A DNA stretch of 64,000 nucleotides from Myxococcales bacterium (GCA_016794505.1 JAEUJZ010000076.1:64001-128000); one strand, 5' to 3'; shown: positions 4,621 through 56,376, numbered from the stretch's first letter. Made by a program: numbers and translations. The notes: a model not told the origin generated them from the letters alone.

Positions 4621-4693
4621 GGGGGAATAGCTCAGTTGGTAGAGCACCGGCTTTGCAAGCCGGGTGTCGTGGGTTCGAATCCCATTTCCTCCA
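4621..4693 (+). tRNA. tRNA-Ala (anticodon TGC)
   Basis: Cloverleaf by eye: acceptor stem GGGGGAA/TTCCTCC with a G3:U70 pair (the Ala identity element), anticodon loop tTTGCAa, T-loop GGTTCGAATCC. Confidence 0.88.
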
Positions 4694-4849
4694 CTTCTTT
4701 TGGTTTGCGTGGGTGGGCGCTGACCTGCCCGCTTCCCTGTACGCGTTTGCTTCGTCGAGCCTGATTGGTCCACCCCCTCGGCACGCGGGGCAGAGCCAGG
4801 GGCCATCCCAGCGGTCCCGGCTGTCCCGTCTGGACACTGGAGACCCCCG

Positions 4850-5410
4850 ATGCACCTGCCCACGCTTCTGCGCTCGTTTTCGCTGCTCTTTCTCTGCTCG
4901 GCCTTCGCAGCCTGTCCGCCTCCGCCACCACCGGGCCCCGGCCCGACGGGCGAGGTCGTCACCCAAGCCACCGCCACCATCGAATCAAGAAGCGGCAGCA
5001 CCGTGACCGGCAGCGCGTCGTTCGAGCAAGTGGCCAACAAGGTCAAGGTCGTCGTCGAGATCGGCGGCGCCACCGCTGGCCAGCATGGCCTGCACATCCA
5101 TGAAAAGGGCGACTGCTCGGATCCCGCGGCCAAGTCGGCCGGCGATCACTTCAACCCCGGCAAGTCCGATCACGGCGGGCCCGAAAAGCCCAGCCACCAT
5201 GCCGGCGACTTCGGCAACATGACCATCGGCGAAGACGGCAAGGGCCGGCTTGAGATCGAGCTTGACGCAGTCAGCGTCAGCCAGGGTGCCAACGCCATCC
5301 TCGGGCGGTCCATCGTGTTTCACGAGAAGCCCGACGATCTGACGACGCAGCCCAGCGGCAACTCGGGCGTGCGTCAGGGCTGTGGCGTCATCGTCGCGCT
5401 GAAGAAGTAA
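4850..5410 (+). CDS. sodC: Cu/Zn superoxide dismutase, lipoprotein form
   Basis: 'GLHIHEKGDC...HFNP...HHAGDFGN...GRSIVFHEKPDD...GNSGVRQGCGVI' are the SodC metal ligands and C-terminal motif. Lipobox LFLC. Confidence 0.9.
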   Translation: MHLPTLLRSFSLLFLCSAFAACPPPPPPGPGPTGEVVTQATATIESRSGSTVTGSASFEQVANKVKVVVEIGGATAGQHGLHIHEKGDCSDPAAKSAGDHFNPGKSDHGGPEKPSHHAGDFGNMTIGEDGKGRLEIELDAVSVSQGANAILGRSIVFHEKPDDLTTQPSGNSGVRQGCGVIVALKK

Positions 5411-5447: not shown

Positions 5448-6263
5448 GTGGACACGGACAGCAGACCGCAGAATCCCTTTGCGCAGCCGGTCTCGGCGTT
5501 TATGGCCAAGCCTGTTCTGACCATTCACCCCGATGCCTCGCTGCAGGAAGCCGAGCGCCGCCTGGAAGACGCGCCGTTTTCGTGCCTGGCCGTCACCGAT
5601 GTCGAGGGTCACTTGTGCGGCGTCGTGTCGCGCACCGACCTTCTGCGCGTGGGTCGCCTGCGCGCCTCGATGGCCGATGACACGCACCTGCTCAAGCTTC
5701 CGCACCAGACCCTGCGGACGCGCATGACCAAGGACGTGATCACCGCCGATCCCAGCACGCCGCTTCAGGCCGTCGCTGCCGAGATGGTGCAGAAGCACAT
5801 CCATCGCATCTTCATCGTCGAAAACAGCCGACCCGTTGGCGTGCTCTCGACGCGCGATCTCATGCAGGCCATCGTGCAGGCGCGCATCGCCGATCCCATC
5901 AAGCGCTGGATGTCGAGCCCGGTCATGACCGTGTCCGCCACCGCCACCATCGGCGAGGCGACCGACCTTCTGCAGGAAGCGCGCGTCCGCGGCCTGGTCG
6001 TCGAAGATCAAGAGTGGCCCGTCGGCCTGTTCACGCAGACCGAGGCCCTGTTGTGCGCATCGCAAGATGCCGGCACCAAGGTCGAAGACGCCATGAGCTG
6101 TGCGCTGCTCTGCCTACCCCTCAACATGCCGCTGTTCCGCGCCGCTGCCCTCGCGCTTGAGACGCGGGCTCGCCGCATCCTCGCCACCGCCAACCGCGAG
6201 ATCCACGGCATCCTCTCGGGCCTCGACATCGCCCGCGTCATCGCCTCCTTCGCGACCCCCTAG
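5448..6263 (+). CDS. CBS domain-containing protein
   Basis: GTG start with an upstream AAGGA. Repeated CBS-like units ('LTIHPDASLQEA...VTDVEGHLCGVVSRTDLLR', 'VITADPSTPLQAVAAEM...IVENSRPVGVLSTRDLM'). Confidence 0.8.
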   Translation: MDTDSRPQNPFAQPVSAFMAKPVLTIHPDASLQEAERRLEDAPFSCLAVTDVEGHLCGVVSRTDLLRVGRLRASMADDTHLLKLPHQTLRTRMTKDVITADPSTPLQAVAAEMVQKHIHRIFIVENSRPVGVLSTRDLMQAIVQARIADPIKRWMSSPVMTVSATATIGEATDLLQEARVRGLVVEDQEWPVGLFTQTEALLCASQDAGTKVEDAMSCALLCLPLNMPLFRAAALALETRARRILATANREIHGILSGLDIARVIASFATP

Positions 6264-6280
6264 CGTCCCCGCCCCGCCGG

Positions 6281-6365
6281 AAGCCCACTCTGCAGTGCTG
6301 GAAGGCCACTCTGCAGCGCTGGAAGCCCTCTTTTCAGTGCTGGAAGGCCACTCTGCAGAGCCTTG
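6281..6365. repeat. tandem 21-bp repeat array, about 3.5 units (ccactctgcagcgctggaag / ccctcttttcagtgctggaag alternating)
   Basis: Seen directly. The same unit family recurs at 11497-11722. The core contains the palindrome CAGCGCTG. Confidence 0.8.
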
Positions 6366-6396
6366 CACTTTTTTAGGCGTCGGGCGCCCGGCTGCA

Positions 6397-6430
6397 CATT
6401 TTTAGGACCGGCTGCACATTTTTAGCTCGG
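6397..6430. repeat. two copies of the 15-mer ctgcacatttttag(g), direct repeats at the left edge of the low-GC island
   Basis: Seen directly. Copies are also present at 11447-11481 on the right edge. Confidence 0.75.
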
Positions 6431-6474
6431 GGCCACGCCCGGGTCGGTCAAGCGTCTGTTGTACAATTTCAGAA

Positions 6475-6732
6475 ATGATCGTTCCGCCTCGGCCAATGAC
6501 CCCTGAGGAAAAAGCTCGGTTCGAAGAACGCGTAAGACAGGTCGATGAGCACATCCGCCAACGCGGGCTGCAAACTGAGTACCCCTTCGAGCCATCCGAT
6601 ACCGAGCAACTTGTGGAGGATGTGCGTGACTATTTCATTCGGGTGCGGAAGCGCACCATAGTCAAGCCATATCGGGACAATCCGGGCAGTCTTTACCGTG
6701 GAACTGGTCGCTGGGTGATGTTCATCCAATAG
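6475..6732 (+). CDS. hypothetical protein (85 aa)
   Basis: An ORF in the low-GC island with no clear RBS. Confidence 0.3.
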   Translation: MIVPPRPMTPEEKARFEERVRQVDEHIRQRGLQTEYPFEPSDTEQLVEDVRDYFIRVRKRTIVKPYRDNPGSLYRGTGRWVMFIQ

Positions 6733-6752
6733 ACGCCAAGTCATCGAATTGG

Positions 6753-7091
6753 CTACTTCACCAGTGCGAGACCTCCCGGTTGTCGCGGCGCCTCCTCAAC
6801 CACGGTGTTCTCGTCCTTGAAGTCCGACGTGATGACGTGCCCGCAGTTAGGGCACGCGCCCGGCGGCAGGAACTTGCCGACGAGTAGATCGTCGATCATG
6901 ACCCCTGCCAGCCGCGCGACGCGAAACGCTAGGCTTGCAGAGACGGGATCGCTGCCACGAATCACGGTCTTAATGGTCTCCGTCTTTGCCTTCACTCCAT
7001 CGGCGACTGCTTGCCATGTGCCAAGACGGTTGTGGAGATAGCGCAGCGCTGCGCGGACGTGTTGCTGTTCTTTGGCGTCTAGATCGCTCAT
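6753..7091 (-). CDS. hypothetical small protein with C-terminal CPNC zinc-ribbon-like motif, co-transcribed with the transposase
   Basis: Its ATG overlaps the transposase stop (TAATG). The long ORF to 7385 is antisense to the transposase and is rejected as an extension. Confidence 0.45.
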   Translation of the reverse strand: MSDLDAKEQQHVRAALRYLHNRLGTWQAVADGVKAKTETIKTVIRGSDPVSASLAFRVARLAGVMIDDLLVGKFLPPGACPNCGHVITSDFKDENTVVEEAPRQPGGLALVK

Positions 7092-8395
7092 TAGGGCACC
7101 AGGGTTAGATGGGGACGGGTGGCGGCAGCCTTGACGGGCTGCGCGTCCTGCCAGAACGTCGGCGCGAGGCCGGCGGAAAAGACTGCCTGCACTACGCAGG
7201 TCAGGTTGTGCAGCAGGCACTTGGCCAGGACTTCGTTGACCTGCGCCGTCGTGGTCTTGGAGCGCACCGACGCGCCGAACTTGCTCTTGAGCATCCACAT
7301 GACGCTCTCGACGTTGCTGCGGCGATGATAGTGCGGCAGGAAGCGATCCTGGTTGAACAGGAACTCGCACAGACGGCGCGACCACGAGGGGCGCTTGGGA
7401 TCGACCTGCGCGTTGACCTTGAACGGGATGAACGGCTCGACACCGAACGACTCCAGGGTGTCGATGTTGTCCTTGCTGCTGTACGCCTTGTCGGCGCTCA
7501 TCTCGCGCACGGTGAAGTTGCGCATGGTCTGCGTCAGTAGCTCTGGCAACTGCGGGCAGTCGGCGGCAGACGTGACCTTGACGCCAGTGATCACATGCGT
7601 TGCCGTTCCGACAGCCACATGCAATTTGACCCAGGGGTGACGCGCGGCGAGTTTGCCGTGCTTCTGGTCAAACCAGCGGTCGTAAGTCACCGTCGAGAAC
7701 CCGGTGGAATCGATCGCGAACTGGCCCATTTCCAGCGCCGCGAGCGGCTTGGCGCTCTCTTCGATGAGCGAGATCAAGATCGCCGTCGATGACTCATCGG
7801 CGAGGAAGTTGGAAATCGTGTTGAAGTGCGCGACCCGACCGAGGGTGCCCTTCTCGACGCTGTCAGCCAGATCCGACTGAACGCGGCGCTGCGACTTCAT
7901 GCTGTAGACCTTGGCGACAGCGGCGAAGGCTTGATCCTTCAGTGGGATCGGCTTGCGGCCACGGCAGCCCGGCGCACGCACAGGCTCCTCGACGCCGTCG
8001 CACAACTCGCGCAACAGACGCTCAACGTAGGCGCCTTCGCTGGTCTGCGACGCGTTGTAGGCCGACCAATCCCGCGCAACGGTCTTGCGCTTGACCGTGA
8101 CGGTCTCTGTTACGCCACCGTCGGCAGCCACTTCTGAGCCCCACGCGATGAAAAAGTAGGTCGCGTGAACGTGCTTGCAGGGAGAGCGACGGAGTTCCCA
8201 GTCGGGGCAGGTGCAGCTCTCTTCGATGATATCGACGAGATACTTGCTCGCAGTCTGCGACTCCGACGGCACAGCGTACCGAGAACCGATCGTCTTGATC
8301 CCGCCCCGCTTGGCGATCTGACGGCCACGCTCCTCGCGCGTCGTCGGCAGCGGCAGGTAGTTCGAGACGGTGTTTTCGGCGGCGTTCGTTTCCAT
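7091..8395 (-). CDS. DDE-type transposase (IS4/IS5-like fold) with N-terminal SWIM-type zinc finger
   Basis: 'CTCPDWELRRSPCKHVHA' is a CxC-x(n)-CxH SWIM finger. DDE-like residues: 'FAIDSTGF', 'MSADKAYSS', '...ESVMWMLKSKF'. Confidence 0.7.
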   Translation of the reverse strand: METNAAENTVSNYLPLPTTREERGRQIAKRGGIKTIGSRYAVPSESQTASKYLVDIIEESCTCPDWELRRSPCKHVHATYFFIAWGSEVAADGGVTETVTVKRKTVARDWSAYNASQTSEGAYVERLLRELCDGVEEPVRAPGCRGRKPIPLKDQAFAAVAKVYSMKSQRRVQSDLADSVEKGTLGRVAHFNTISNFLADESSTAILISLIEESAKPLAALEMGQFAIDSTGFSTVTYDRWFDQKHGKLAARHPWVKLHVAVGTATHVITGVKVTSAADCPQLPELLTQTMRNFTVREMSADKAYSSKDNIDTLESFGVEPFIPFKVNAQVDPKRPSWSRRLCEFLFNQDRFLPHYHRRSNVESVMWMLKSKFGASVRSKTTTAQVNEVLAKCLLHNLTCVVQAVFSAGLAPTFWQDAQPVKAAATRPHLTLVP

Positions 8396-8397
8396 GC

Positions 8398-8457
8398 ACT
8401 TAATATGCGCATGGAAACTGAATTTGACAAGATATTTTTCATGCGCATATTAAGTGC
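8398..8457. promoter_or_regulatory. perfect 17-bp inverted repeat (cacttaatatgcgcatg ... catgcgcatattaagtg) in the divergent transposase / RHH-gene intergenic region; probable operator
   Basis: Seen directly. The right arm abuts the RHH gene start. Confidence 0.45.
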
Positions 8458-8459
8458 CC

Positions 8460-8651
8460 ATGGCCAAGCCCTCGAAAAAGCCCCGCATGGGGCGCCCCCC
8501 CGTCGCTGATGAAGATCGCAGGACGACTCACATCAAAGTGCTCCTTACGGAAACCGAGCGCGAAACTCTAGAGCAAGCCGCCAAGCCCACCGGACAAGGC
8601 GTCTCGACCTGGGTGCGCATGGTGGCCCTAGAGAGAGCACAGCAAAACTGA
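8460..8651 (+). CDS. ribbon-helix-helix (CopG/MobC-like) DNA-binding protein
   Basis: 'MGRPPVADEDRRTTHIKVLLTETERETLEQAAK...STWVRMVALE' follows the RHH pattern. Confidence 0.5.
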   Translation: MAKPSKKPRMGRPPVADEDRRTTHIKVLLTETERETLEQAAKPTGQGVSTWVRMVALERAQQN

Positions 8652-8652
8652 G

Positions 8653-8685
8653 GCCCGCCGCCCGGCCACAAGCCGGACGGCGGGC
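8653..8685. terminator. GC-rich hairpin (GCCCGCCG...CGGCGGGC) just after the RHH gene stop
   Basis: An inverted repeat with an 8-bp outer stem plus a 5-bp inner stem, seen directly. There is no clear U-tract. Confidence 0.3.
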
Positions 8686-8955
8686 TATCGCTTACGCGAT
8701 ATGGATGGGCACGCGGCGACCATCGATCGTGCGAATCACAATCGGCTGGCCGCAGCAGCAACTCTTAGCGGTGCAGGTCATTGCCTGTCCTCCAAGTTGT
8801 TAGGGTTGGAGGCGCAGCGACACCGTTGACACATCGCCCGGCATAAGTCAGGCTGACCGCTGACGGTTCCACACGTCGCGGCGTGATGTGCTTCCAACAC
8901 ACTGCGCCAGGTTTGGGATGTTGTCGGTGTTAGCGCACCGCGAGTCTCCCAACCG

Positions 8956-8979
8956 GGAATGGCCTTTTTAAGCCATTCC
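8956..8979. terminator. hairpin GGAATGGC-cttttaa-GCCATTCC just 3' of the 161-aa gene
   Basis: Seen directly. AT-rich flanks. Confidence 0.3.
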
Positions 8980-8997
8980 TTTATGTAAGGCTATGCA

Positions 8998-9483
8998 TTA
9001 AGCCGCCATTGCTACGTCATTGATACCACCAGCAGCCAAATGCTCTGCAACGTCAAGCGTGAAGTCTAGAATCATTTGTATGGGTTCTGCATCTTTGTGC
9101 ATGTCGTTGTAGGTATCGACATCCACGCGCAACTGAATGCAGTCACCGACGACGCTGCGACGACGCTGCGCAAATGCCTTGAGCATATGGTCACGCGGGG
9201 CGGTTTCCAACTCAGCCCAGAGGGAAAATTGGACACCATGGCGCGTAATGCGGACTGCGTGATTGCGCCGATATCTCCGACCCTTGGCGTCAGTGGCTAA
9301 TTCCTCACGAAGCGCATGGGTCATTTTGTCAGCCATGATCGCATATGGGTCCACAACGGGAAGGTTCAACAGACCGTTGTCAACGGCCCATTTGGCGACC
9401 ACATATGGGCTTTCCGGCACCCCGTCGTGCTCGGCTTGATATTTGTGCCACAATTTCTGGTACTGCTCTGCTGAAGTTGACAT
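8998..9483 (-). CDS. hypothetical protein (161 aa) immediately downstream of HTH-ImmA; candidate regulated cargo
   Basis: Clean ORF with a 24-bp gap to the upstream gene. Confidence 0.5.
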   Translation of the reverse strand: MSTSAEQYQKLWHKYQAEHDGVPESPYVVAKWAVDNGLLNLPVVDPYAIMADKMTHALREELATDAKGRRYRRNHAVRITRHGVQFSLWAELETAPRDHMLKAFAQRRRSVVGDCIQLRVDVDTYNDMHKDAEPIQMILDFTLDVAEHLAAGGINDVAMAA

Positions 9484-9507
9484 GCGAGTTCCTTTTGGGT
9501 TGCGTTC

Positions 9508-10659
9508 CTAGACAGGCGCGATCTGGCCAAAGCCATCGACAACTGCACTTGACAGCACGCTGGCGCGAATTTTGGCCAGGTGCTTGGTGAATATCTTGTA
9601 GTTGTTGATGCGGCTTCGTAGTTGTCCGGCCGCAATCCCTGGATGCACTTGGATCCGGTGCGCGAAACCGATCAAATCGGCTTCCGAGTAGTACGGGTGT
9701 TTTCTGGCGATCCAAGAATCCATTTCCTTTGGCGGAACGCAAAATGCAGCCGCAGCCGCATTAGCCAAGCGTTCCTGCTCTGGAAGCCCAGCTCCAACGC
9801 CGGCTTTTTCTCCATCCAACTCGTCTATCATGGCATCAACTTTTCCGTCTTTATTAAAGACGTGTTCTAGTTCATGCATAAGAACAAACCAGAAGTTATC
9901 AATTCGATCGAACCGCAATGACATCCCGACCACAGGCGATTTCCCGTTATCGAGCCACAAACATACGCCGTCTATCTTGCCCGAGGGAAGGCTCTCGACG
10001 ATAACAAAGCGTATACCGCATTCCGATAGCAGTCGCGGCACATGACGAGTTTCCTCGGGAGCACTCATTAATGCACGGAGTCTCGGCAGCGAATCGCGTA
10101 GCTTTTTCTCTGAGTAGGTGGGCAGGACCATTTGGTCCGCGATTTGTCTCACTCTAAACAACCACGCCAATTGCAAGGCTGTCGTGGCGTCATAACTGGT
10201 CTTTTTTGCGGCATATGACAAATGAGGCAATTGCTCGGAAGCCGATACGCCATAGAATTTGGCTAACTCTGCTTCTAGATTATTTTTGGAATCGTCGAGC
10301 CAGCCCCGCTTAATCATCTCCCGCAAGGGGTACTGCTTTTGCAACTCCACCATGCGGATGACGCGTGCATCGGGCGACTTGGCCTGAGCCAGATCTTTCG
10401 CATTTTGTAGACCAAGAAAAAACTCAGCGGGTTTTTCAAAAGCTAGGCTAAGTAATTTTGCGAGGTCAGCGGTGATCGCGCGCTTGCCGACCACGACAGC
10501 ATTTACAGCCTGCTCTGGCAGGCCGAGCGCAAATGCCAGATCGCGCTGCAGCCACCCACGCGCTTCGAGTTCATTTCGTATGTAATCACCGGGGGTTATG
10601 GTTTGGCTCTGCATGGGCGGAGAGCCTACTGAACCCTGCCCAATCTGGTCAATCATCAA
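9508..10659 (-). CDS. fused HigA-family HTH (XRE) domain + ImmA/IrrE-family (COG2856) zinc metallopeptidase
   Basis: N-terminal 'TPGDYIRNELEARGWLQRDLAFALGLPEQAVNAVVVGKRAITADLAKLLSLAF' is a HigA-type HTH. The HEXXH motif 'FVLMHELEHV' follows. Confidence 0.8.
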   Translation of the reverse strand: MMIDQIGQGSVGSPPMQSQTITPGDYIRNELEARGWLQRDLAFALGLPEQAVNAVVVGKRAITADLAKLLSLAFEKPAEFFLGLQNAKDLAQAKSPDARVIRMVELQKQYPLREMIKRGWLDDSKNNLEAELAKFYGVSASEQLPHLSYAAKKTSYDATTALQLAWLFRVRQIADQMVLPTYSEKKLRDSLPRLRALMSAPEETRHVPRLLSECGIRFVIVESLPSGKIDGVCLWLDNGKSPVVGMSLRFDRIDNFWFVLMHELEHVFNKDGKVDAMIDELDGEKAGVGAGLPEQERLANAAAAAFCVPPKEMDSWIARKHPYYSEADLIGFAHRIQVHPGIAAGQLRSRINNYKIFTKHLAKIRASVLSSAVVDGFGQIAPV

Positions 10660-10711
10660 ATCAACAGAATTGATGATTTTTCATGTTCTCCGTCGAGAAC
10701 AGGGGCAGCCC

Positions 10712-11020
10712 CTAACCGCCGAACGCCAGCCAGCCCCTAGAGACGCGCAAGGCATCCGCTAGCGCCGCCATCACATCCGCCGATGTGCCAGCTTTCTTGC
10801 CGGACTCGATCTCGCGAATCGTGCGGATGCTGACTCCCGAGGCAGATGCCAAGTCAGCCAGAGACCAGCCGAGCCGATCGCGCGACCACTTCAAGCGCAC
10901 GGCTTGACCTGAGCCAAGCTCAGGCCATGGGACGGTTTCCGGTACTGGCACCTTCTCGGTAGGCACGGCGGGCACCATAACCGAGGTGCGCTTGCACGCC
11001 ATCGGTGGCGTTTTACGCAT
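10712..11020 (-). CDS. XRE-family helix-turn-helix transcriptional regulator
   Basis: 'LKWSRDRLGWSLADLASASGVSIRTIREIESGKK' is a Cro/CI-type HTH. The start was chosen at an internal Met; the upstream part of the long ORF looks non-coding. Confidence 0.55.
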   Translation of the reverse strand: MRKTPPMACKRTSVMVPAVPTEKVPVPETVPWPELGSGQAVRLKWSRDRLGWSLADLASASGVSIRTIREIESGKKAGTSADVMAALADALRVSRGWLAFGG

Positions 11021-11120
11021 GACGATGTGAAATTTGCAGACGGATACATGCGAATGTCGTGCGTAAAATTTCACAATCGCGCATGAGTCCGCCAGCATGG
11101 GCCGCAGGAGGACACAGACC

Positions 11121-11435
11121 ATGAACCGACTCGCGACCGAGACAAATCGCAAAGCCAAGCGCATGCCAGCCGTCGTTGCACGACTTGACCTAGAGGACGC
11201 CGATCAACATCGGCTGCACGGGCTAATCCAGCGCATGCACAGCGGGCGCTGGCCACTGTTCCGATTGCTTGGCATGCGCCAAATTGCCGGCGTGCTCTAT
11301 GAGGCGGTGGAATGGCTCAGGATGGCTAAGCCGCAGTTCGGCCTAGTGACGTGGCGATCGGACGGGCTGGGGATGTCGTGGAAGGACGCGGACAGCGCGG
11401 ATGAAGCGCGAGCCATGCTCAAGGCCCTCAAGTAG
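11121..11435 (+). CDS. hypothetical protein
   Basis: GGAGGA RBS 9 nt upstream of the ATG. Divergent from the XRE gene. Confidence 0.4.
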   Translation: MNRLATETNRKAKRMPAVVARLDLEDADQHRLHGLIQRMHSGRWPLFRLLGMRQIAGVLYEAVEWLRMAKPQFGLVTWRSDGLGMSWKDADSADEARAMLKALK

Positions 11436-11446
11436 CCGGCCAGCAC

Positions 11447-11481
11447 GCTGCACATTTATTCGGCAGCCTGCACATTTTTAG
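11447..11481. repeat. two copies of ctgcacattt(a/t)tt(c/a)gg at the right island boundary
   Basis: Seen directly. They match the 6397-6430 copies. Confidence 0.75.
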
Positions 11482-11496
11482 GCCAGCCGGCCCGAA

Positions 11497-11722
11497 TTAC
11501 TGTGCAAGGCCACTCTGCAGCGCTGGAAGCCCTCTTTTCAGTGCTGGAAGCCCTCTCCTGCAGCGCTGGAAGCCCTCTTTTCAGTGCTGGAAGCCCACTC
11601 TGCAGCGCTGGAAGCCCTCTTTTCAGTGCTGGAAGCCCACTCTGCAGCGCTGGAAGTCCTCTTTTCAGTGCTGGAAGGCCACTCTGCAGCGCTGAAAGCC
11701 CACTCTGCAGTGCCGGAAGGCC
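11497..11722. repeat. tandem 21-bp repeat array, about 10 units (same family as 6281-6365)
   Basis: Seen directly. Period 21/42 bp; each unit ends in gctggaag. Confidence 0.85.
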
Positions 11723-11742
11723 CTCTCTGCTTGGCTGGTAGT

Positions 11743-13086
11743 CTACCCGTCTAGACCCATAAGAAGGCCGGTGCTGTCGTCACCGAAGCGGGGCTGAGGG
11801 GCAGAGAGGGCGTGCAAGATGGACAGGTACAGGTTGGCGAGCGGCTGGCCGGAAAGGCGCAGGTGACGGCCGGGCTGAATGGCGGTGCCCAGGCGGCCGA
11901 CGAGCAAGAGCGGCATGTTGTCATGGTTGTGGCGGTTGCCATCGGACACGTCGCTGGATAGGACGATCAGGGTGCGGTCGAGCAGGCTCTGGCCGCCTTC
12001 CTGGGTCTTTTTGAGCCCGTCGACGAGGTACGCGAGAAGCTGCATCTCGTAGGTGTTGATGGTCTGCAGCTTGGCGAGGTTTTCCGGGGCGTCCTGGTGG
12101 TGCGAGATCTCGTGGTGGGCGCCGGGCGCGCCGATAAAGGCATACGAGCGGTTGGAAAGCCCATTGCCCCACATGTACGAGATGACGCGCGACAGATCGC
12201 AGGAAAAGGCGAGGACCATGAGCTCAGCCATGGCCTTGGCGGTCTCGTCGAAGCGCAGCATGTCCGCGGGGCGCTTGGCGGCGCCGCAGGCGGGCGTGTT
12301 GCCTTCGATGCGGGCCTCGACCTGGCGCACGGCGGACAGGTACTCGTCGAGCTTCCGTCGATCGGTGCTGCCCAAGCGCGTCTGCAGGCGTGTCGCATCG
12401 GCGAGGACGTGATCGAGCACGCTCTTTCGTTGGCGGCGGCGGCGCTCTAGCTGCTCGGGCGTCTGACCTTGATCTTCACCGCGGAACAGCACATCAAAGA
12501 CGACGCGCGGATCGAACATCTTGGGCAGCGGCGTGCGCGGCCCCGACCACGAGATGTTGGTGGTGTACGCGCAGCTATAGCCGGAATCGCAGACGCCACC
12601 GCTGGAGCCGCCGTCGAGACCCAGCTGCAGCGAGGGAAAGCGAGTGCCGACACCGAGCTTGGCCGCAGCGAGCTGATCGATCGAGACACCCAGGCGGATG
12701 TCGCTGTCGCTCTTGTTGGCTTTGGCGCAGGTCAAAAAGGCGCTGGTGCCGCCTGCGTGATCGCCGGCTCCGTCGGGACGTCCGGGCAGGTTGCTCAGGC
12801 CGGACAAGACCAGAAGCTCGCTTTTGAAGGGCGCAAGCGGCTGCAGAATGGGCGAAAGCGTCCACTCGGACCCGGTCTCTTTCGGAGTCCAGGCCGGCAT
12901 GTGCATGCCGTTGGGCACGTAATAAAAGAGCAGCCGCTGCGGCGGGGAAGCGGCCTGGGCGGGGGCGACAAAGCGCCGGAAGCCAAGGCTCTCAAGAAAC
13001 GGCAGGGCGAGGGCTACTCCGGCTCCGCGCAGCACGGCGCGACGAGAAAGCTCGGCGCGATGGGGACGAGAAGAACGAGGGGTCAT
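11743..13086 (-). CDS. DUF1552-family protein with Tat signal
   Basis: Twin-arginine leader 'SRRAVLRGAGVALALPFL'. Overall DUF1552 (sulfatase-like fold) architecture. ATGA overlap with the upstream partner gene. Confidence 0.75.
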   Translation of the reverse strand: MTPRSSRPHRAELSRRAVLRGAGVALALPFLESLGFRRFVAPAQAASPPQRLLFYYVPNGMHMPAWTPKETGSEWTLSPILQPLAPFKSELLVLSGLSNLPGRPDGAGDHAGGTSAFLTCAKANKSDSDIRLGVSIDQLAAAKLGVGTRFPSLQLGLDGGSSGGVCDSGYSCAYTTNISWSGPRTPLPKMFDPRVVFDVLFRGEDQGQTPEQLERRRRQRKSVLDHVLADATRLQTRLGSTDRRKLDEYLSAVRQVEARIEGNTPACGAAKRPADMLRFDETAKAMAELMVLAFSCDLSRVISYMWGNGLSNRSYAFIGAPGAHHEISHHQDAPENLAKLQTINTYEMQLLAYLVDGLKKTQEGGQSLLDRTLIVLSSDVSDGNRHNHDNMPLLLVGRLGTAIQPGRHLRLSGQPLANLYLSILHALSAPQPRFGDDSTGLLMGLDG

Positions 13087-36751: not shown

Positions 36752-39700
36752 ATGGTGCCTGTGCCTTCGATCGTCACACTGTACGCCGCAGAAGATCGCG
36801 ATCGGTTCGCGGTCTATGATCGGCACCTGTCGTCGCTGAAGCTGGGCCGTGCGCTGCGCCATACCCACTCGGGGGATCTGCTGCCCGGCGAGCCGCTCGC
36901 GCGCCTGGATCAGCTGCTGCGCGACGCTGGCCCGGTGGTCTGTCTGCTCAGCGCCGACTTCCTTTCGAACCCGGATCTGATGGCGCAGGCCAAGGCCGCC
37001 GCCGACCGGCGAGGGCTGAGCAAGCGGCTGATTCCCGTGCGCCTGCGACCGGTCGATCTGTCCGACACCGTGTTCGCCGACCGGCAGGCCCTGCCGCGCG
37101 ATGGCACGCCGCTTTTCGACGGAGACCACATCCGCGAGGAGGCCCTGACGCAGGTGGTCGCCGGCCTGCGCGATCTGATGGAGGTGCTGCGCCGATCGCG
37201 CGGGATGGATCTCGATGGCGAGTACCGCTACCGCGAGACGCTGATCGATCGCGTCTACCGCGAGACGCTGCTCGATCGCGTCGAGGAAGCCTGTCGCAGG
37301 CGGGCCGAGCGCGACCACAAAGACGTGCGCCTGCGCCGCGTCCAGGCCCCGCCGCCCTTCGGCGAGCTGATCGAAGTCCGCTACCAAGACTCGTTCTGGT
37401 CGCGGCGCTATCTGGTCGCCGCGCTGTCGTCCACACCGACGGGCGATGACATCCAGACCCTTGGTGCTGAGCTGCGCAGCCGCTACCAGCAGCTAGACGC
37501 CATGGCCTATGCCGAGCTGATCTTTGTCGGGGCGCCGCTGTCCGAGGCGCTGCTGCAGCAGGCGCGCACCCTCACCATCGAAGCGCAGCACCTGGAGGAC
37601 TACCAAGGCCTTATCCACTTTGGTCGGTACATCCACGATCAGCAGCGCGCCCTGCAAAACGACGAGCGCTATCCGCCGGCCCTGTATGTCCCGCAGCGCA
37701 TGGTGTACAGCCGCGGCCTGGGCGGACGCGAAGAGACCGCCGAGCGCGACGCCCTGGACGAGATGTTTGCCTGGGTGCTGCAGCGCGACATGCAGCGCTT
37801 CATCTTGGTGCTCGGTGAGTTCGGCGTCGGCAAGACCTTCCTTTTGCATGAGCTGGCCCGGCGCCTTGGGGAACATCCCGGTGCGCCGACGCCGGTCCTG
37901 CTAGAAATGCGTAGCCTGGAAAAGGCCCGCAGCCTCGACGAGCTCATCGCGCAGCACCTGGCCAGCCGCGGCATCGAGCGCATCGACCTGTCTGGCTTTC
38001 GCTACATGCTGGCCGAGGGGCGCATCGCGCTGCTCTTCGACGGCTTCGACGAGCTAGCCCTGCGCGTCAGCTACGACCGCGCCGCCGAGCACCTGGACAC
38101 CATCACGCAAGCGGCGCAGGGACGGGCCAAGGTCGTCTTGACCAGCCGCACGCAGCACTTTCGCTCGGACGATCAGGTCAAGAACGCGCTCGCCCGACGG
38201 CTGGAAGCGCTGCCCGGCCACCGCGCGGTGCGGCTGTTGCCGTTCGACGACGGCCAGATTCGATCGTTTTTGGGCAATCGGCTCAAAGACCCGGCCCAGG
38301 CCGAGGCGCGATACACCCTGCTGCGCGACGTCAAAGACCTGCTGGGTCTGTCGGAAAACCCGCGCATGCTGAGCTTCATCGCCCAGCTTCCCGAGGCACG
38401 GCTGCGCCAGGCCCAGACCCGCGGCGAGATCACCGCCGCCAAGCTGTACGAAGAGCTTCTGACCTGGTGGATCGAAGAAGAGTGGAAGCGCGCCCATCCC
38501 AAGGGGCAAGAGCCGGGCCTGTCGACCGAGCAGCGCTGGGCCGCCGTTGAAAAGCTGGCGCAGCGACTGTGGCAGCAGACCGAGTCCTGGGTCACCGAAG
38601 CGCAGCTTGGCGACGTGGTCAGCGCGACGCTGCTGCAGCTAAAAGACGTCGGCGTGGCCGTCCATCAGGTCGGCGCCGGAACGCTGCTGTGTCGCGATGG
38701 CGAGGGGCGCTTTTCGTTCATTCACCAGTCGGTGATGGAGTGGCTGGTGGCCAAAGAAGCGGCGCGGCGGGTGGCAGCCGGCGGCTCGGCACTGTATGCG
38801 GCGCGCGAGATCTCGCCGCTGATGGCCGACTTTTTCACCGACCTGCTCGGGCACAAGGCCGCGTGTGCCTGGGCCCGCGATGTGGGCAAGAACCGCGAGG
38901 CCCGCGACATCGAAAAGAGCAACGCGCTGCTCATTCGCAGGCGCCTGGGGGACTCGCTTTCCGGCCAGGATCTGGCGGGCCAGGATCTGCGCGAGCACGC
39001 CCTGTGCGATGCCGATCTAGAGGGCGCCAACCTGCGCAAGGCCGACCTGCGCGACGTCGATCTGCGACGGGCACGCCTGGTCCGCGCCGACCTGCGCGAT
39101 GCCGACCTGCGCGGCGCGATCCTGCTTGGCGCCGATCTGCGCGGCGCCCAGCTAGAAGGCGCCCGCATGGCGCGGGCTGCCCTGGTCGGCGCGCACATGG
39201 ACGCTCCCGAGACCCTCGACCCAGCCGCCCTGTGGGGCGCCGCCCCGCCCCACCTGAGCGAAACCACCCCCCTGCAAATCATGGCCCACGGCACCTCGGG
39301 GCTGTCGTTGTCCGGCGGCGACCTGGCCTTCAGCCCCGACGGTGCGCTGCTGGCCGTGCCATGCGATGACGGCACGGTGCGGCTGTGCAACGTTGCCAGT
39401 GGCCGTGCGTGCCGCGTGCTGTCCGGGCACCACCGCTACGTTCAGGGCGTGAGCTTCAGCCCCGACGGACGCGTGCTGGCATCGGCGTCTCACGACGGCA
39501 CGGTTCGGCTGTGGGATGTCGCCAGCGGTCGTGAGCGCCGCGTGCTATCCGGGCACCAGGGCCGTGTGCTAAGCGTGGACTTCAGCCCCGACGGCCAGAC
39601 GCTGGCCTCGGGGGCACAAGATGGCACGATCCGGCTGTGGGACGCTGCCAGCGGTCGCGAGCAGCGCGTGCTGTCGGGGCACAAGGGCGCTGTGCTAAGC

Positions 39701-41455
39701 GTGGACTTCAGCCCCGATGGGCAGACGCTGGCCTCGGCGTCCTGGGACTACAGCGTGCGGCTGTGGGATGTTGCCGGGGGCTGCGAGCGGCACGCGCTGG
39801 CTGGGTACGACGACGAGGTGAATAGCCTGTGCTTCAGCTGGGATGGGCAGGTGCTGGCTTCGGCATCCGGCGATGGCACCGTACGTCTGTGGGAGGTCGC
39901 CAGCGGCCGCGAGATCCAGGCGGCATTGGGAAAATTAGGCGACGTACGTAGCGTGAGCTTCAGCCCGGATGGGCAGACGCTGGCCTCGGCCTCCGACGAT
40001 GGCACCGTACGCCTGTGGGATGTCGAAAGCGGCCGCGAGCGGCGCGTGCTGTCTGATCGCCCACGCAGCATATGGAGCGTGCGCTTCAGCCCGGATGGGC
40101 AGGTGCTGGCCGCATTATCCATCGACAATACGGTGAGTCTGTGGGACGTGGCCAGCGGCCACGAACGGCACACGCTGTTAGGAAGCCAAAGCCGTGTGTT
40201 GAGCGTGTGCTTTAGCCCGGATGGTCAAGCGCTGGCCTTGGGGTCTAGAGACAACACAGTGAGTCTGTGGGACGTGGCCAGCGGCCGCGAGACGCTCGTG
40301 CTAACGGAACACCCACACTCGGTGTCGTGCGTGAGCTTCAGCCCGGATGGGCAGACGCTGGCCTCGGGCTCCTGGGACCACATCGTGCGGCTATGGGACC
40401 GCGCCAGTGGCAGCCAGACACAGGTGCTGTCAGGACACCGAGCCAACGTGTTGAGCGTGCGCTTCAGCCCCGATGGGCAGACGCTGGCGTCAGGGTCCGG
40501 GGACCACACCGTGCGGCTGTGGGACATCGCCAGTGGCCGTGAGCGGGGCGTGTTGAAAGAGCATCAAGGCGACGTGAATAGCGTGAGCTTCAGACCGGAT
40601 GGGCAGGTGCTCGCCTCGGCGTCTGACGACGGCACGGCGCGGCTGTGGAACGTGGCCAGCGGTCGCGTGCGGCACGTGCTGTCGGGATCCTCTGGCCCCG
40701 TGTACAGCGTGAGCTTCAGCCCCGATGGGCAGACGCTGGCCTCGGGCTCCTCTGACGGCGCGGTGCGTCTGTGGGACGTGGACCGTGGCGATGGGGGGTG
40801 GCGCGTGCTGGTGCTGTCCGGGCACCAAGGCGCCGTGCGCTGCGTGAGCTTCAGCCCGGATGGCAAAGCGCTGGCCTCGGCGTCCGAGGACCACACCGTG
40901 CGGTTATGGGACATGGCCAGCGGTCGCGAGCGCCTCGTCCTGTCGGGGCACCAACGCGCCGTCACAAGCGTGAGCTTCCGCCCGGATGGACGGGTGCTGG
41001 CCTCGGGATCTGACGACAACACCGTGCGGCTGTGGGACGTCGAAAGCGGCCGGTGTCTGGGCATCCTGGTGCCCTGCGCCGAGGGCTGGGCCGCCCTGAC
41101 CCCAGACGGCCGCTATCGCATGGGCGGGACCATCGCGGGCGAGGTCTGGTACGCAGTCAACCTATGCCGCTTCGAACTCGGCGAGCTAGATCCGTATGTG
41201 GACCCCGACCTGCCCGCGCCGCTGCGCTTGCCCGACTCGTTCCGCTTCGTGGAACCGACCCCCACCACCCCGCCTGCCATCGAGCCGGCCGTTCCCGACG
41301 CCCCCGGCCGCGACACCACGCTGCCCCCCGCCACGGTCGCGCGCTTTTCTCGCTGGGTCGCTACCCCACTCGGCATCGCGCTTCTCTCATTGATCGCGGG
41401 GCTGCTCTACGTGTTGGCTCGGCTGCTCTACGTGTTGCTCGGGATGATCTTCTGA
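36752..41455 (+). CDS. STAND NTPase: N-terminal TIR-like domain, NACHT/AAA module, pentapeptide repeats, about 14 WD40 repeats and a C-terminal TM helix
   Basis: TIR-like segment: 'IVTLYAAEDRDRFAVYDRHLSSL...GDLLPGEPLARLDQLLRDAGPVVCLLSADFLSNPD'. Walker A 'GEFGVGKTF'; Walker B 'ALLFDGFDE'. Pentapeptide repeats 'ADLRDVDLRRARLVRADLRDADLRGAIL'. Repeated 'GH...V.SV.FSPDGQ.LAS.S.D.TVRLWD' units. Confidence 0.85.
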   Translation: MVPVPSIVTLYAAEDRDRFAVYDRHLSSLKLGRALRHTHSGDLLPGEPLARLDQLLRDAGPVVCLLSADFLSNPDLMAQAKAAADRRGLSKRLIPVRLRPVDLSDTVFADRQALPRDGTPLFDGDHIREEALTQVVAGLRDLMEVLRRSRGMDLDGEYRYRETLIDRVYRETLLDRVEEACRRRAERDHKDVRLRRVQAPPPFGELIEVRYQDSFWSRRYLVAALSSTPTGDDIQTLGAELRSRYQQLDAMAYAELIFVGAPLSEALLQQARTLTIEAQHLEDYQGLIHFGRYIHDQQRALQNDERYPPALYVPQRMVYSRGLGGREETAERDALDEMFAWVLQRDMQRFILVLGEFGVGKTFLLHELARRLGEHPGAPTPVLLEMRSLEKARSLDELIAQHLASRGIERIDLSGFRYMLAEGRIALLFDGFDELALRVSYDRAAEHLDTITQAAQGRAKVVLTSRTQHFRSDDQVKNALARRLEALPGHRAVRLLPFDDGQIRSFLGNRLKDPAQAEARYTLLRDVKDLLGLSENPRMLSFIAQLPEARLRQAQTRGEITAAKLYEELLTWWIEEEWKRAHPKGQEPGLSTEQRWAAVEKLAQRLWQQTESWVTEAQLGDVVSATLLQLKDVGVAVHQVGAGTLLCRDGEGRFSFIHQSVMEWLVAKEAARRVAAGGSALYAAREISPLMADFFTDLLGHKAACAWARDVGKNREARDIEKSNALLIRRRLGDSLSGQDLAGQDLREHALCDADLEGANLRKADLRDVDLRRARLVRADLRDADLRGAILLGADLRGAQLEGARMARAALVGAHMDAPETLDPAALWGAAPPHLSETTPLQIMAHGTSGLSLSGGDLAFSPDGALLAVPCDDGTVRLCNVASGRACRVLSGHHRYVQGVSFSPDGRVLASASHDGTVRLWDVASGRERRVLSGHQGRVLSVDFSPDGQTLASGAQDGTIRLWDAASGREQRVLSGHKGAVLSVDFSPDGQTLASASWDYSVRLWDVAGGCERHALAGYDDEVNSLCFSWDGQVLASASGDGTVRLWEVASGREIQAALGKLGDVRSVSFSPDGQTLASASDDGTVRLWDVESGRERRVLSDRPRSIWSVRFSPDGQVLAALSIDNTVSLWDVASGHERHTLLGSQSRVLSVCFSPDGQALALGSRDNTVSLWDVASGRETLVLTEHPHSVSCVSFSPDGQTLASGSWDHIVRLWDRASGSQTQVLSGHRANVLSVRFSPDGQTLASGSGDHTVRLWDIASGRERGVLKEHQGDVNSVSFRPDGQVLASASDDGTARLWNVASGRVRHVLSGSSGPVYSVSFSPDGQTLASGSSDGAVRLWDVDRGDGGWRVLVLSGHQGAVRCVSFSPDGKALASASEDHTVRLWDMASGRERLVLSGHQRAVTSVSFRPDGRVLASGSDDNTVRLWDVESGRCLGILVPCAEGWAALTPDGRYRMGGTIAGEVWYAVNLCRFELGELDPYVDPDLPAPLRLPDSFRFVEPTPTTPPAIEPAVPDAPGRDTTLPPATVARFSRWVATPLGIALLSLIAGLLYVLARLLYVLLGMIF

Positions 41456-54525: not shown

Positions 54526-56376
54526 CTAGCGAAAGACGTATACAGCGCCGCTGCCTGGAGCGCGGTTGTTGGTCCAGATGTCGTTCACGCCGCGAGCATC
54601 GTCGGCTTCATTCAGTGCTCCGATGGCCACGGTGCCGTCTGACACCGCCACACGATAGCCAAAGTAGTCACCGCGCTCAGAGTTGGGGGCTTTGATATAG
54701 GCTTGCTGCCTCCACGTGGTGCCGACTCGCTGGAACAGATAGCCCGCGCCGCTGCTAAGCGCCGAGTTGTCGTTCTGGCCGACATTTATGACTCTGGAGC
54801 CGCTACCTTCAGTGTAGGCGCCGACGACTAGAAGATCGCCCGACAGTGAGATGCTGGTGCCGAACAGGTCGTCCCGCTCGGTGTTGCTGGCCTTGATATA
54901 GGCCTGCTGACTCCACGTGGTGCCGGTTCGCTGGAACACATAGACCGCCCCGCTTGCAACGAAGTCGTTGTTGGCTTGATTGCCATCCACTCCCGTTGCG
55001 TTGCTGTCTTCCCCGGTTGCAGAAACGGCCAGGGTGTCGCCCGACAGGGATACTGCGGTGCCAAAGTAGTCGGCGCCATTTGTGTTGCTGGCCTTGATAT
55101 AGGCTTGCTGGCTCCAGGTGGTGCCGACGCGCTGGAACACATAAACCGCGCCGCTCCCTGGTGCACTGTTGTCGGCCTGGTTGCCATTTGCCCCGGTGGC
55201 ATTGCTGGCTTCCATTGTGGCGCCCACGGTCAGGGTGTCGCCGGACACCGCGACGCTCGTACCGAACTGATCATTCGCCTCGGTGTTGCTGGCCTTGATA
55301 TAGGCCTGCTGGCTCCAAGTCGAGCCGGAGCGCGTAAAGACATAGACCGCGCCGCTCCCTGAAGCGCTGTTGTCGGCCTGGTTGCCATCCACTCCGGTAG
55401 CGTTGCTATCTTCCGCCATGGCTCCCACGGCGAGGGTGTCGCCTGATACAGAGACGCTATAGCCAAACTGATCGTATGCCTGGGCGTTGCTGGCCTTGAT
55501 ATAGGCCTGCTGCCTCCACGTGGTGCCGGTTCGCTGGAACACATAGACCGCCCCGCTTCTCGGCGCGCTGTTGTCGGCTTGGTTGCCATTGACCCCCGTG
55601 GCACTGCTGGCTTCCATATAGGTTCCGACAGCGAGCGTGTCGCCCGAAAGTGAAAGGCTAAGGCCAAACTGATCCAGCGCCTCGGTGTTGCTGGCCTTGA
55701 TATAGGCTTGCTGGCTCCAGGTCGAGCCGGCGCGCGTAAAGACGTAGACCGCGCCGCTGGCAAATGCGCTGTTGTCGGCCTGATTGCCATCCACTCCGGT
55801 GGCATTGCTCTCTTCCGAAGTGGCCGCCACGGCCAGCGTGTCCCCCGATAGCGCCACCATGGCGAAGAGATCGCCGGTACCGGTGTTGCTGGCCTTAATA
55901 TAGTCGATGGGTGCTTTCGTAATGGCGATGTCGTAGCTCATCTGTGCTCCGCCCTGGCTTTGGACCCGTACCGCGATCATCGTCGGCCCGTTGGCCAGTG
56001 CGATCGGCGCTGAGGCGACGCCGGAAGCCACCGGCTGTCCGTTTATCTCGATCGTGGCCCCCGACTGCACAGCCGTCGCTGTGACCTGCACAGTGGTGGC
56101 AAAAACGGAGACCCGCGCCGAATAGACCGCCCGCGTCGGAGAGAACTCTGGGCTAAGAGAGCCCCCAGATAGGCTGAGCGCAGAAAGAGAAGCATCGTCG
56201 ACGCTGGCATCTTGGCCACCGCCGCTGGCATCGCTGGCTCCACAGGCAAAGCCAGTCGGCAGGCAGGTAGCTCCACACGGCATCATCCCTTGCGGGCAGC
56301 CGGCCTGGCCCCCCGTTTGTGAACAGCCCAAGACACCGATTACCGTCAGAATCCAACAGACATTCGCAATCCGCAT
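54526..56376 (-). CDS. secreted lipoprotein with cadherin-like beta-sandwich domain and about 9 FG-GAP-like beta-propeller repeats
   Basis: Lipobox 'VLGC'. 'LSALSLSGGSLSPEFSPTRAVYSARV' is cadherin-like. Tandem ~42-aa units 'GNQADNSA.SGAVYVF.R.G.TWSQQAYIKASNT...D.FG'. Confidence 0.7.
   Translation of the reverse strand: MRIANVCWILTVIGVLGCSQTGGQAGCPQGMMPCGATCLPTGFACGASDASGGGQDASVDDASLSALSLSGGSLSPEFSPTRAVYSARVSVFATTVQVTATAVQSGATIEINGQPVASGVASAPIALANGPTMIAVRVQSQGGAQMSYDIAITKAPIDYIKASNTGTGDLFAMVALSGDTLAVAATSEESNATGVDGNQADNSAFASGAVYVFTRAGSTWSQQAYIKASNTEALDQFGLSLSLSGDTLAVGTYMEASSATGVNGNQADNSAPRSGAVYVFQRTGTTWRQQAYIKASNAQAYDQFGYSVSVSGDTLAVGAMAEDSNATGVDGNQADNSASGSGAVYVFTRSGSTWSQQAYIKASNTEANDQFGTSVAVSGDTLTVGATMEASNATGANGNQADNSAPGSGAVYVFQRVGTTWSQQAYIKASNTNGADYFGTAVSLSGDTLAVSATGEDSNATGVDGNQANNDFVASGAVYVFQRTGTTWSQQAYIKASNTERDDLFGTSISLSGDLLVVGAYTEGSGSRVINVGQNDNSALSSGAGYLFQRVGTTWRQQAYIKAPNSERGDYFGYRVAVSDGTVAIGALNEADDARGVNDIWTNNRAPGSGAVYVFR

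Follow-up and report, generated by a model that had tools for sequence, protein, structure and literature searches.

A probable passenger-carrying relative of IS903-group transposons inserted in a 21-bp tandem array of a Myxococcales bacterium

Why does a low-GC (guanine plus cytosine) block lie between two arrays of the same 21-bp repeat in a Myxococcales bacterium? The block is found near the left end of a 64,000-nucleotide stretch of this genome (GCA_016794505.1, JAEUJZ010000076.1:64001-128000; hereafter the window, from whose first letter all positions are counted), and a preliminary description made from the sequence had presented it as foreign mobile DNA inserted in a pre-existing repeat locus. 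Positions 6359-11511 form one element of 5153 bp with 9 genes, the ends and target duplication of which can be read from the window sequence. This element is very probably a copy of a passenger-carrying transposon, the enzyme of which is a distant, N-terminally extended relative of the transposases of the IS903 group (IS5 family of insertion sequences, ISs). A composition scan upheld the low-GC character of the block, with 57.8% GC over 6359-11511 vs 64.9% in the left flank and 65.9% in the right flank; the lowest values, 0.50-0.55, occur at 8.8-10.6 kb of the window.

The length of 5153 bp is fixed by the termini at 6359 and 11511, which are flanked by the 9-bp sequence ACTCTGCAG on both sides. 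The terminal inverted repeats of the window copy are 10 bp long, (A/G)GCCTTGCAC; the left terminus begins AGCCTTGCAC at 6359, and the right-end terminus is GGCCTTGCAC, the window reading ...GTGCAAGGCC up to the last base at 11511. These inverted repeats (at 6359 and 11494-11511), which the preliminary description had proposed to look for, had been missed there together with the 9-bp duplication. In addition, a 15-mer, CTGCACATTTTTAGG, occurs with up to 3 mismatches at 6363, 6392 and 6412 on the left and at 11448 and 11468 on the right, and nowhere else in the 64-kb window (5 matches vs 0.69 expected; 0/100 shuffles reached 5). The 15-bp repeats reported earlier are thus real, but the boundary role given to them is not supported: they are subterminal sites inside the real ends (B sites below) and not repeats of an attachment type. 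Likewise, the earlier layout of 'A-B / island / B-A' had run together two things that are not related, since A belongs to the target DNA and B to the element. The ends and their surroundings are as follows.

6278-6349, + strand: left chromosomal array of 21-bp units (42-bp a/b dimer); target DNA, not element
6350-6358, + strand: left 9-bp target-site duplication ACTCTGCAG, an exact match to 11512-11520
6359-6377, + strand: left terminal inverted repeat AGCCTTGCACTTTTTTAGG, itself a B-type site
6392-6426, + strand: left subterminal B sites, CTGCACATTTTTAGG at 6392 and CTGCACATTTTTAGC at 6412, 20 bp apart, in the same direction as the terminal site
11448-11482, + strand: right subterminal B sites, CTGCACATTTATTCG at 11448 and CTGCACATTTTTAGG at 11468, 20 bp apart, pointing outward, opposite to the terminal site
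11494-11511, - strand: right terminal inverted repeat, the reverse complement of which reads GGCCTTGCACAGTAATTC
11512-11520, + strand: right 9-bp target-site duplication ACTCTGCAG
11521-11730, + strand: right chromosomal array of 21/42-bp units; target DNA

As detected by Tandem Repeats Finder (TRF), the array comprises 3.8 copies at 6278-6361 and 10.6 copies at 11503-11730 on the same strand, in agreement with the preliminary description. Its 21-bp unit is really a 42-bp alternation of two variants, a and b, and the unit is not found elsewhere in the window with up to 3 mismatches. In-silico removal of 6359-11511 and one copy of ACTCTGCAG leaves one in-phase array of 13.7 x 21 bp (6.9 x 42 bp at 92% match) and restores a perfect unit, TGGAAGGCCACTCTGCAGCGC, at the junction, which supports the earlier proposal of insertion into a pre-existing repeat locus. 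Applied to relatives of the element with both flanks visible, this reconstruction yields a single uninterrupted array, in phase, in 9/9; reconstructed arrays (copies x period) include the following, the L numbers denoting loci that carry relatives.

L024: 12.2 x 21
L071: 12.3 x 21
L020: 5.3 x 43
L009: 7.9 x 19
L018: 15.6 x 21
L008: 5.8 x 18
L022: 4.8 x 43
L005: 7.8 x 11

The array sequences of different relatives are unrelated to each other. At the window locus, the array is bordered by two convergent genes that both point at it.

Ending at 6263, left flank of the array: CBS-domain gene (Pfam/open reading frame (ORF) list)
Ending at 11743, right flank of the array: DUF1552 gene

In a sister lineage, in which the CBS protein is 94% identical, a diverged 21-bp repeat, GGAGCCGTCCCCGCACCAGCC, directly follows the CBS stop codon; because this unit differs from that of the window at the same position, the array evolves rapidly while its locus stays fixed. 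In more remote relatives, with a CBS protein 73-80% identical, the neighbouring genes are different and there is no array. Arrays are not confined to host DNA, because the cargo of one family member, L034, contains a perfect 19-bp x 4.1 array (CCGAGGTCGGTTGCAAAAT) at 4876-4953.

Relatives were fetched by means of the transposase from 10 loci, one genome per species (mostly metagenome-assembled genomes (MAGs) of Kofleriaceae), and further relatives came from 80 loci in metagenomes and 9 loci on IMG/VR contigs. Complete copies range in size from 2.5 to 9.8 kb, and every copy, from all three sources, has inverted repeats at its ends that begin with the family-wide terminus GGCYTTGCMC. GGCYTTGC termini together with a 9-bp duplication are the signature of about 50 related copies. 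An exact 9-bp duplication is present at 20 complete relatives (13 from genomes or metagenomes, L018, and 6 from IMG/VR), examples being GACCGTGTC (L006), ATGCGATCC (L014), CCCAGGCGG (L024), CATCTTCGG (L071), TCGAGGAGG (L120), and CACTTCATG (L018); at L005 and L010 the duplication is 10 bp, not 9. Each end has a terminal site and two more copies about 20 bp apart, in an asymmetric arrangement: at one end all three sites have one direction, and at the other the inner two are reversed. This pattern is kept in about 20 copies, and the sequence of the site drifts between copies (CTGCACATTT, CTGCCTCAGAA, CTGCCCGAGAA, TTGCCCATAAA). Clades differ in how the core gene module is oriented with respect to the two end types. 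Evidence of mobility comes from L047-L049, in which the right end is 91% identical and the transposase DNA 87% identical in another genomic context and with other cargo. The window copy itself is matched by independent Logan contigs at 100% identity over 6329-11535.

Two further observations concern the family at large. Nested or abutting terminus-like sequences are present at L020 (447-4515, with an inner pair at 527 and 4252), L005 (~8355), L035/L036, L040, L043, and L065, which suggests elements inserted into one another or non-autonomous shells. One complete copy with a 54% identical transposase, L007 (contig JACQII010000010.1), is binned as 'Candidatus Aenigmatarchaeota archaeon'; this archaeal assignment is probably a binning error, because the hosts of all other copies are bacterial.

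The part of the element that accompanies the ends from copy to copy is a module of three genes with a shared control region.

6753-7094, - strand: small core protein of 113 amino acids (aa) with a helix-turn-helix (HTH) and a CxxC motif; its start overlaps the transposase stop (ATGA)
7091-8395, - strand: transposase of 434 aa (Pfam DDE_Tnp_1, E = 1.7e-20; SWIM, E = 2e-6)
8396-8457, unstranded: palindromic control region with 22-nt arms at 8396-8417 and 8436-8457 that are 95% complementary
8430-8402, - strand: sigma-70-like promoter of the transposase, TTGTCA-17-CATATT
8424-8451, + strand: sigma-70-like promoter of the ribbon-helix-helix (RHH) gene, TTGACA-16-CATATT
8454-8651 (63-aa gene from 8460), + strand: RHH protein of 63 aa, NikA-like (Pfam E = 1.8e-7), divergent from the transposase
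8653-8685, unstranded: strong hairpin terminator (stem of 15 bp) that separates the core module from the cargo operon

The SWIM zinc finger of the transposase is N-terminal (C61-x-C63...C73-x-H75). Asp229, Asp302, Glu363, and the Y356-(2)-R-(3)-E-(6)-K370 signature (R359) are invariant in an alignment of 22 family sequences. No relative of the transposase was found in the PDB by sequence, and its AlphaFold2 (AF2) model (pLDDT 49.8) is too poor for use. The pairing of a SWIM-DDE transposase with a coupled small partner, which had been pointed out before, is conserved across the family. However, the small partner is not the Zn-ribbon protein it had been taken for: it has an XRE/PbsX-type HTH at about residues 25-70 (alignment-based) and a single CxxCGH knuckle, in which C80-x2-C83-G84 is invariant and H85 is present in most members, followed by an acidic tail ending LxLV-K. 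A profile of 13 members of this small protein matches PDB entries 9k3w (E = 8.5e-5) and 2eby (E = 1.1e-4). Among 19 complete copies, the transposase is present in 19, the small protein in 14, and the RHH protein in 12. The family core is therefore made up of the RHH protein, the SWIM-DDE transposase, and the translationally coupled HTH-CxxC protein, and the remaining genes are variable cargo.

The palindrome between the RHH and transposase genes, also recognized earlier, has a compact organization. The two predicted promoters face each other with overlapping -35 boxes and are the only promoter-like sites in the element, and each arm of the palindrome contains a -10 box and adjoins a start codon. 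Relatives share this palindromic promoter layout, which, like the asymmetric ends, is kept in about 20 copies, and the arms are loosely like the end sites of the same element.

The best NCBIfam model for the transposase is NF033579 (IS5_2), with 132.4 bits over residues 109-398, and the best annotated tblastn matches among 72,556 plasmids are IS903B and ISAte1, over residues 109-397; this plasmid collection holds no family member above 31% identity. Among the candidates scored, 3903 protein clusters match at E <= 0.001, nearly all of them metagenomic and named at most 'transposase'. When IS903B on plasmid NZ_CP042552 was checked, its termini (GGCTTTGTTGAATAAATC, beginning GGCTTTGTTG) and its 9-bp duplication (AAGTCTATC) showed the same terminal bases and the same stagger as in the window family. 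A DDE_Tnp_1 domain with the YREK signature, termini beginning GGCTTTG, and a 9-bp duplication are thus common to IS903/IS903B and the window family. IS903, however, is an element of about 1 kb with one gene, whereas the window family has passenger genes, an N-terminal extension of about 108 aa with the SWIM zinc finger, the RHH and HTH-CxxC genes as extra core genes, two subterminal repeats per end in an asymmetric arrangement, and a bias for tandem arrays. Two features by which the IS903 group is recognized, a score above the curated cut-off and the one-gene architecture, are lacking in the family.

The bias for tandem arrays emerges from the count of insertion sites. Thirteen independent insertions lie in arrays, namely that of the window (W) and those at L005, L008, L009, L011, L013, L018, L020, L022, L024, L027/28, L031, and L071, out of about 46 sites in genome and metagenome loci; 6 more sites on IMG/VR contigs are all outside arrays. 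Arrays of 15-50 bp period away from element ends, mostly coding repeats, cover 0.15% of 737 kb, so that the enrichment of insertions in arrays of ~21-bp period is roughly 200-fold and the binomial probability of at least 13/46 insertions in arrays is 2e-26. A second kind of preferred target is seen at L081 (9001-16060; L080 has the same arrangement), where three different members of the family are arranged head to tail and are separated by copies of one and the same 9-mer, TATGGCAAA (at 9001, 12629, and 16041). The identity of this 9-mer indicates that the same staggered target, at the tip of a resident element, was used repeatedly, which is the opposite of target immunity.

The properties shared by the targeted arrays are tandem periodicity and a non-coding location only. 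The periods, mostly 21 or 42-43 bp and in one case each 19, 18, and 11 bp, lie near the 20-21-bp phasing with which the sites recur in the element ends. Several other candidate properties were rejected. Arrays do not behave as expanded binding sites of their own element (8.46 matches to own vs 8.30 to other elements; permutation p = 0.31), and a palindromic target pattern in the style of IS903 is missing (2.5/10 symmetric pairs around the duplication vs 2.6 in shifted controls). Resemblance of the flanks to the termini of the element is not supported (z = 1.4 over 68 ends). Hairpin or cruciform potential is marked in three arrays (z -5 to -6) and about zero or positive in several others; strongly palindromic arrays make up 3/12 in the family, and the array of the window, all units of which are direct, folds no better than its shuffles (z = +1.0). 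A footprint model, in which a unit would consist of the 9-bp duplication plus 12 bp of terminus remnants, loosely fits the window and L071 and fails for L024 and L020.

Several findings weigh against insertion of an IS903-type transposon with a preference for arrays. The transposase is just 27-30% identical to IS903-group enzymes, and its IS5_2 score of 132.4 is below the NCBI cut-off of 140. The terminal inverted repeat of the window is short, with 9/10 bases matching, and position 6359 is an A, whereas every other family end has a G; the A is also present in independent Logan contigs, and this G-to-A substitution at the outermost base of the left end may have crippled the window copy for transposition. 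No duplication is seen at L007, L085, L088, and L091, four putative complete copies. Comparison of the flanks with relatives, which had been suggested as a way to an empty site, yielded no empty-site allele among contigs carrying the flanking genes or among the closest homologues, and all short-read contigs of the same or the sister lineage with flanking genes stop inside the array: in at least 10 public sequencing runs, contigs with the CBS or DUF1552 gene end in it (with their last ~55 bases in L093, L094, and L096, and with their last ~80-100 bases in L103-L108). The background rate derives from about 0.7 Mb of mixed contigs and not from complete genomes. Finally, a sequence, symmetry or hairpin feature common to the targeted arrays was looked for and not found, which leaves the preference for them without a mechanism.

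Three other explanations of the locus have to be weighed against insertion into an existing array. The arrays might have been made or expanded by the element after its insertion, by abortive cleavage and repair or as footprints of insertion and excision, an origin that would suit the facts that 16/23 non-coding arrays of 15-50-bp period in the 737 kb abut an element end, free-standing ones being hardly seen, and that array sizes are fairly uniform (~150-330 bp). Growth from unique flanks would, however, give differing units on the two sides, whereas both sides have the same unit, exactly in phase minus one 9-bp copy, in 9/9 cases, as expected for a single insertion into an existing array. Array units are unlike the sites of the element (p = 0.31) and those of L024 and L020 are free of terminus-derived sequence; about 39/52 copies have no array, and the sister lineage has its diverged array at the same locus. 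An origin of the arrays after insertion is thus regarded as very improbable. Even less credence, close to none, is given to a genomic island that entered via the 15-bp direct repeats as attachment-like sites, or to an integrated plasmid replicon of the iteron type, despite the direct repeats at both boundaries, the 21-bp arrays flanking the gene cluster, and the NikA-like RHH protein. Terminal inverted repeats enclose the direct repeats and are in turn framed by a 9-bp duplication, which is the hallmark of DDE transposition; the array sequence is wholly different between related copies whereas the termini are conserved; and most copies have no array. Pfam and NCBIfam reveal no integrase (tyrosine or serine recombinase), Rep protein or relaxase among the genes of the window element. 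The absence of an integrase, as stated in the preliminary description, is correct, but it is beside the point because the DDE transposase mobilizes the element.

The third explanation concerns the bias and dispenses with active targeting: arrays would be neutral 'safe havens', or a genome-wide repeat of the type of repetitive extragenic palindromes (REPs), and insertions elsewhere would be purged. Insertion of IS elements inside REPs is well documented (PMC1525189), an insertion does no harm between the two convergent genes that border the array of the window, and nested or adjacent family members could reflect the same effect. Nevertheless, this explanation is unlikely, given that other neutral intergenic DNA is far commoner and yet arrays take about 1/4 of the sites, and that several of the non-array insertions are apparently in coding sequence. 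Neither the 21-bp unit nor the 15-bp site recurs elsewhere in the 64-kb window, so that the refuting condition named in the preliminary description, genome-wide REP-like repeats, finds no support within these 64 kb; the direct, poorly folding units of the window array also differ from the hairpin-forming, alternating palindromes of REPs. Moreover, the use of exactly the same 9-bp staggered cut by three elements is hard to explain by selection alone.

For transposition into existing arrays, the following course of events may be envisaged. The GGC termini would be cut by the transposase and joined to a target cut with a 9-bp stagger, as in IS903. The repeated sites would be bound by the N-terminus of the transposase and/or by the HTH or RHH partner, and a single DNA-binding module might recognize the termini, the subterminal sites, and the promoter arms. 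Binding to these sites would then lead both to an asymmetric transpososome and to auto-regulation of the divergent promoters, coupling assembly to regulation. As for the target, the family would actively prefer ~21-bp phased arrays and the ends of resident relatives without reading a simple sequence motif. With low to moderate confidence, target capture is proposed to be sensitive to the phasing or architecture of DNA, and the extra DNA-binding parts may mediate this sensitivity. A more specific form of this idea, tentative and rather doubtful, is a sequence-independent targeting of the 'ruler' type, in which arrays with a period of ~21 bp (two helical turns) would match the phasing of the element's own end sites, tips of relatives would be accepted as well, and the SWIM, HTH-CxxC, and RHH parts would constitute the targeting machinery.

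The C-termini of the transposase (7091-7115) and the HTH-CxxC protein (6753-6775) both have the form xLxLV followed by K, R or P (RPHLTLVP and GGLALVK), and the same is seen in most homologues. A clamp-binding motif, QLSLF, occurs at the C-termini of several transposases (PMC3971601). The xLxLV tails faintly recall this beta-clamp motif, although the conserved Q is missing; insertion might be biased by loading of the clamp or by forks that stall at repeats.

Literature searches (SWIM with IS5; passenger-carrying IS903-type elements; tandem-repeat targeting) found no description of this transposon family, which thus appears to be undescribed. Passenger-carrying insertion sequences (tIS) and small unit transposons also consist of terminal inverted repeats and a single transposase that moves a variable load, and to our knowledge none of those described pairs an IS903-type enzyme with SWIM, RHH, and HTH partners. 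In Tn7 and phage Mu, multiple transposase-binding sites per end are arranged differently and make the ends functionally distinct. Multi-site, unequal ends are shared with the window family, whereas the enzymes belong to unrelated families. Tn7 and Mu also show target immunity and do not readily insert close to their own ends, whereas different members of the window family sit exactly 9 bp apart. PIF/Harbinger elements combine an IS5-related DDE transposase with a separately encoded DNA-binding partner; this partner is of the Myb/SANT type and the duplication is 3 bp, so that their likeness to the window family is an analogy only. With respect to target choice, IS1397, ISKpn1, and ISPpu9/ISPpu10 insert in REPs (Tobes and Pareja, 2006, PMC1525189). 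Such elements, from the IS3 and IS110 families among others, are likewise concentrated in non-coding intergenic repeats, but they recognize a specific palindrome that is present in hundreds of copies, whereas the targets of the window family are direct tandem arrays of mutually unrelated sequence with a period near 21 bp, many of them without hairpin potential.

The insertion in the window is in itself ordinary, a transposon having landed between two genes. What the family adds to the IS903 theme is a SWIM-bearing transposase with two DNA-binding partners, asymmetric multi-site ends, and the array bias; the interesting and unexplained part is this bias together with the stacking of elements on one 9-bp target. 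Should phased DNA be actively recognized, a DDE transposase would have a new way to choose a safe landing site, and a possible handle for site-directed integration would be provided. The bias also flags short 21-bp arrays in genomes of the Myxococcota type as worth explaining, and the arrays that bear elements break short-read assemblies in many public runs. Furthermore, the element spreads cassettes that are toxin-antitoxin-like or defence-like, as well as methyltransferases.

In the window copy, the cargo comprises the following genes.

6496-6732 (open from 6475), + strand: orf78 (ORF list and gene call on an identical Logan contig)
8998-9483, - strand: orf161, partner of the Xre-M78 protein
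9508-10614 (open to 10659), - strand: Xre-M78 protein of 368 aa (HTH_3 and Peptidase_M78; TIGR02607 HigA)
10712-11002 (open to 11164), - strand: XRE-family HTH protein of 96 aa (HTH_3, E = 6.8e-12; Logan gene call)
11121-11435 (open from 11097), + strand: orf104, divergent from the XRE gene (ORF list and Logan gene call)

The fusion of a Xre/HigA-type HTH to an M78 (ImmA/IrrE) peptidase, the XRE gene, and the RHH gene agree with the preliminary description, in which these genes were read as a repressor/anti-repressor switch. That reading is not supported, in that nothing ties Xre-M78 and orf161 to control of the element. Homologues of orf161 always lie directly behind a 350-390-aa HTH_3 protein, and because such a pair recurs in a prophage-like island with an integrase and beside an IS1-like gene, Xre-M78 and orf161 form a two-gene cassette that is mobile on its own. 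GC at third codon positions is 0.56-0.57 in these two genes, 0.83 in the transposase gene, and 0.81-0.85 in the flanking host genes. No match to orf161 was found in PADLOC, Pfam, NCBIfam, and PHROG, nor a fold match, and an identical protein is annotated in NCBI from a 'Myxococcales bacterium' MAG. For orf78 and orf104, Pfam, NCBIfam, PADLOC, and PHROG gave no family match; none of the other complete copies has orf78. Among relatives, the cargo includes a DUF4238 protein, another HTH-M78 protein, a D12 methyltransferase, and an N6/N4 methyltransferase encoded together with a partner gene. The cargo of the window (Xre-M78 with orf161, XRE with orf104, and orf78) may represent a toxin-antitoxin-like or defence-like load that came from lower-GC DNA.

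The closest defence system in this respect is PD-lambda-2, in which component B is toxic alone, the HigB-like component A neutralizes B, and component C is needed for defence (Vassallo et al., 2022, PMC9519451). Xre-M78 matches the PADLOC model PD-Lambda-2_B (PDLC03982) over its full length (E = 8.2e-49; residues 18-364 vs model positions 55-392 of 402), and a small co-transcribed partner follows in both. Component A, which lies upstream of B in PD-lambda-2, is absent from the window cargo, because the gene upstream of Xre-M78 encodes the XRE (HTH_3) regulator; no match to HigB or PD-Lambda-2_A was found. The gene downstream of B, orf161, does not match the P4-antitoxin-like component C.

In the spacer between the divergent XRE and orf104 genes, a 9-nt inverted repeat, GTGAAATTT / AAATTTCAC, is present at 11027-11035 and 11066-11074, and its position makes it a likely operator for the cargo regulator. 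A cysteine-rich ORF of 29 codons, MTCTAKSCCCGQPIVIRTIDGRRVPIHIA, at 8692-8781 on the - strand, between orf161 and the terminator, was called on one Logan contig and may be spurious. Plasmid and phage collections searched with the DNA of the whole element gave short HigA-like matches only, and Rfam gave no match within the element.

Elsewhere in the window, a tRNA-Ala(TGC) gene lies at 4621-4694, 1.7 kb left of the insertion, and is not used as an attachment site. Coding tandem repeats unrelated to the element are found at 38987-41052, where a 15-bp period is followed by 126-bp units that are WD40-like by translation pattern, and at 54877-55848, in units of 201/402 bp.

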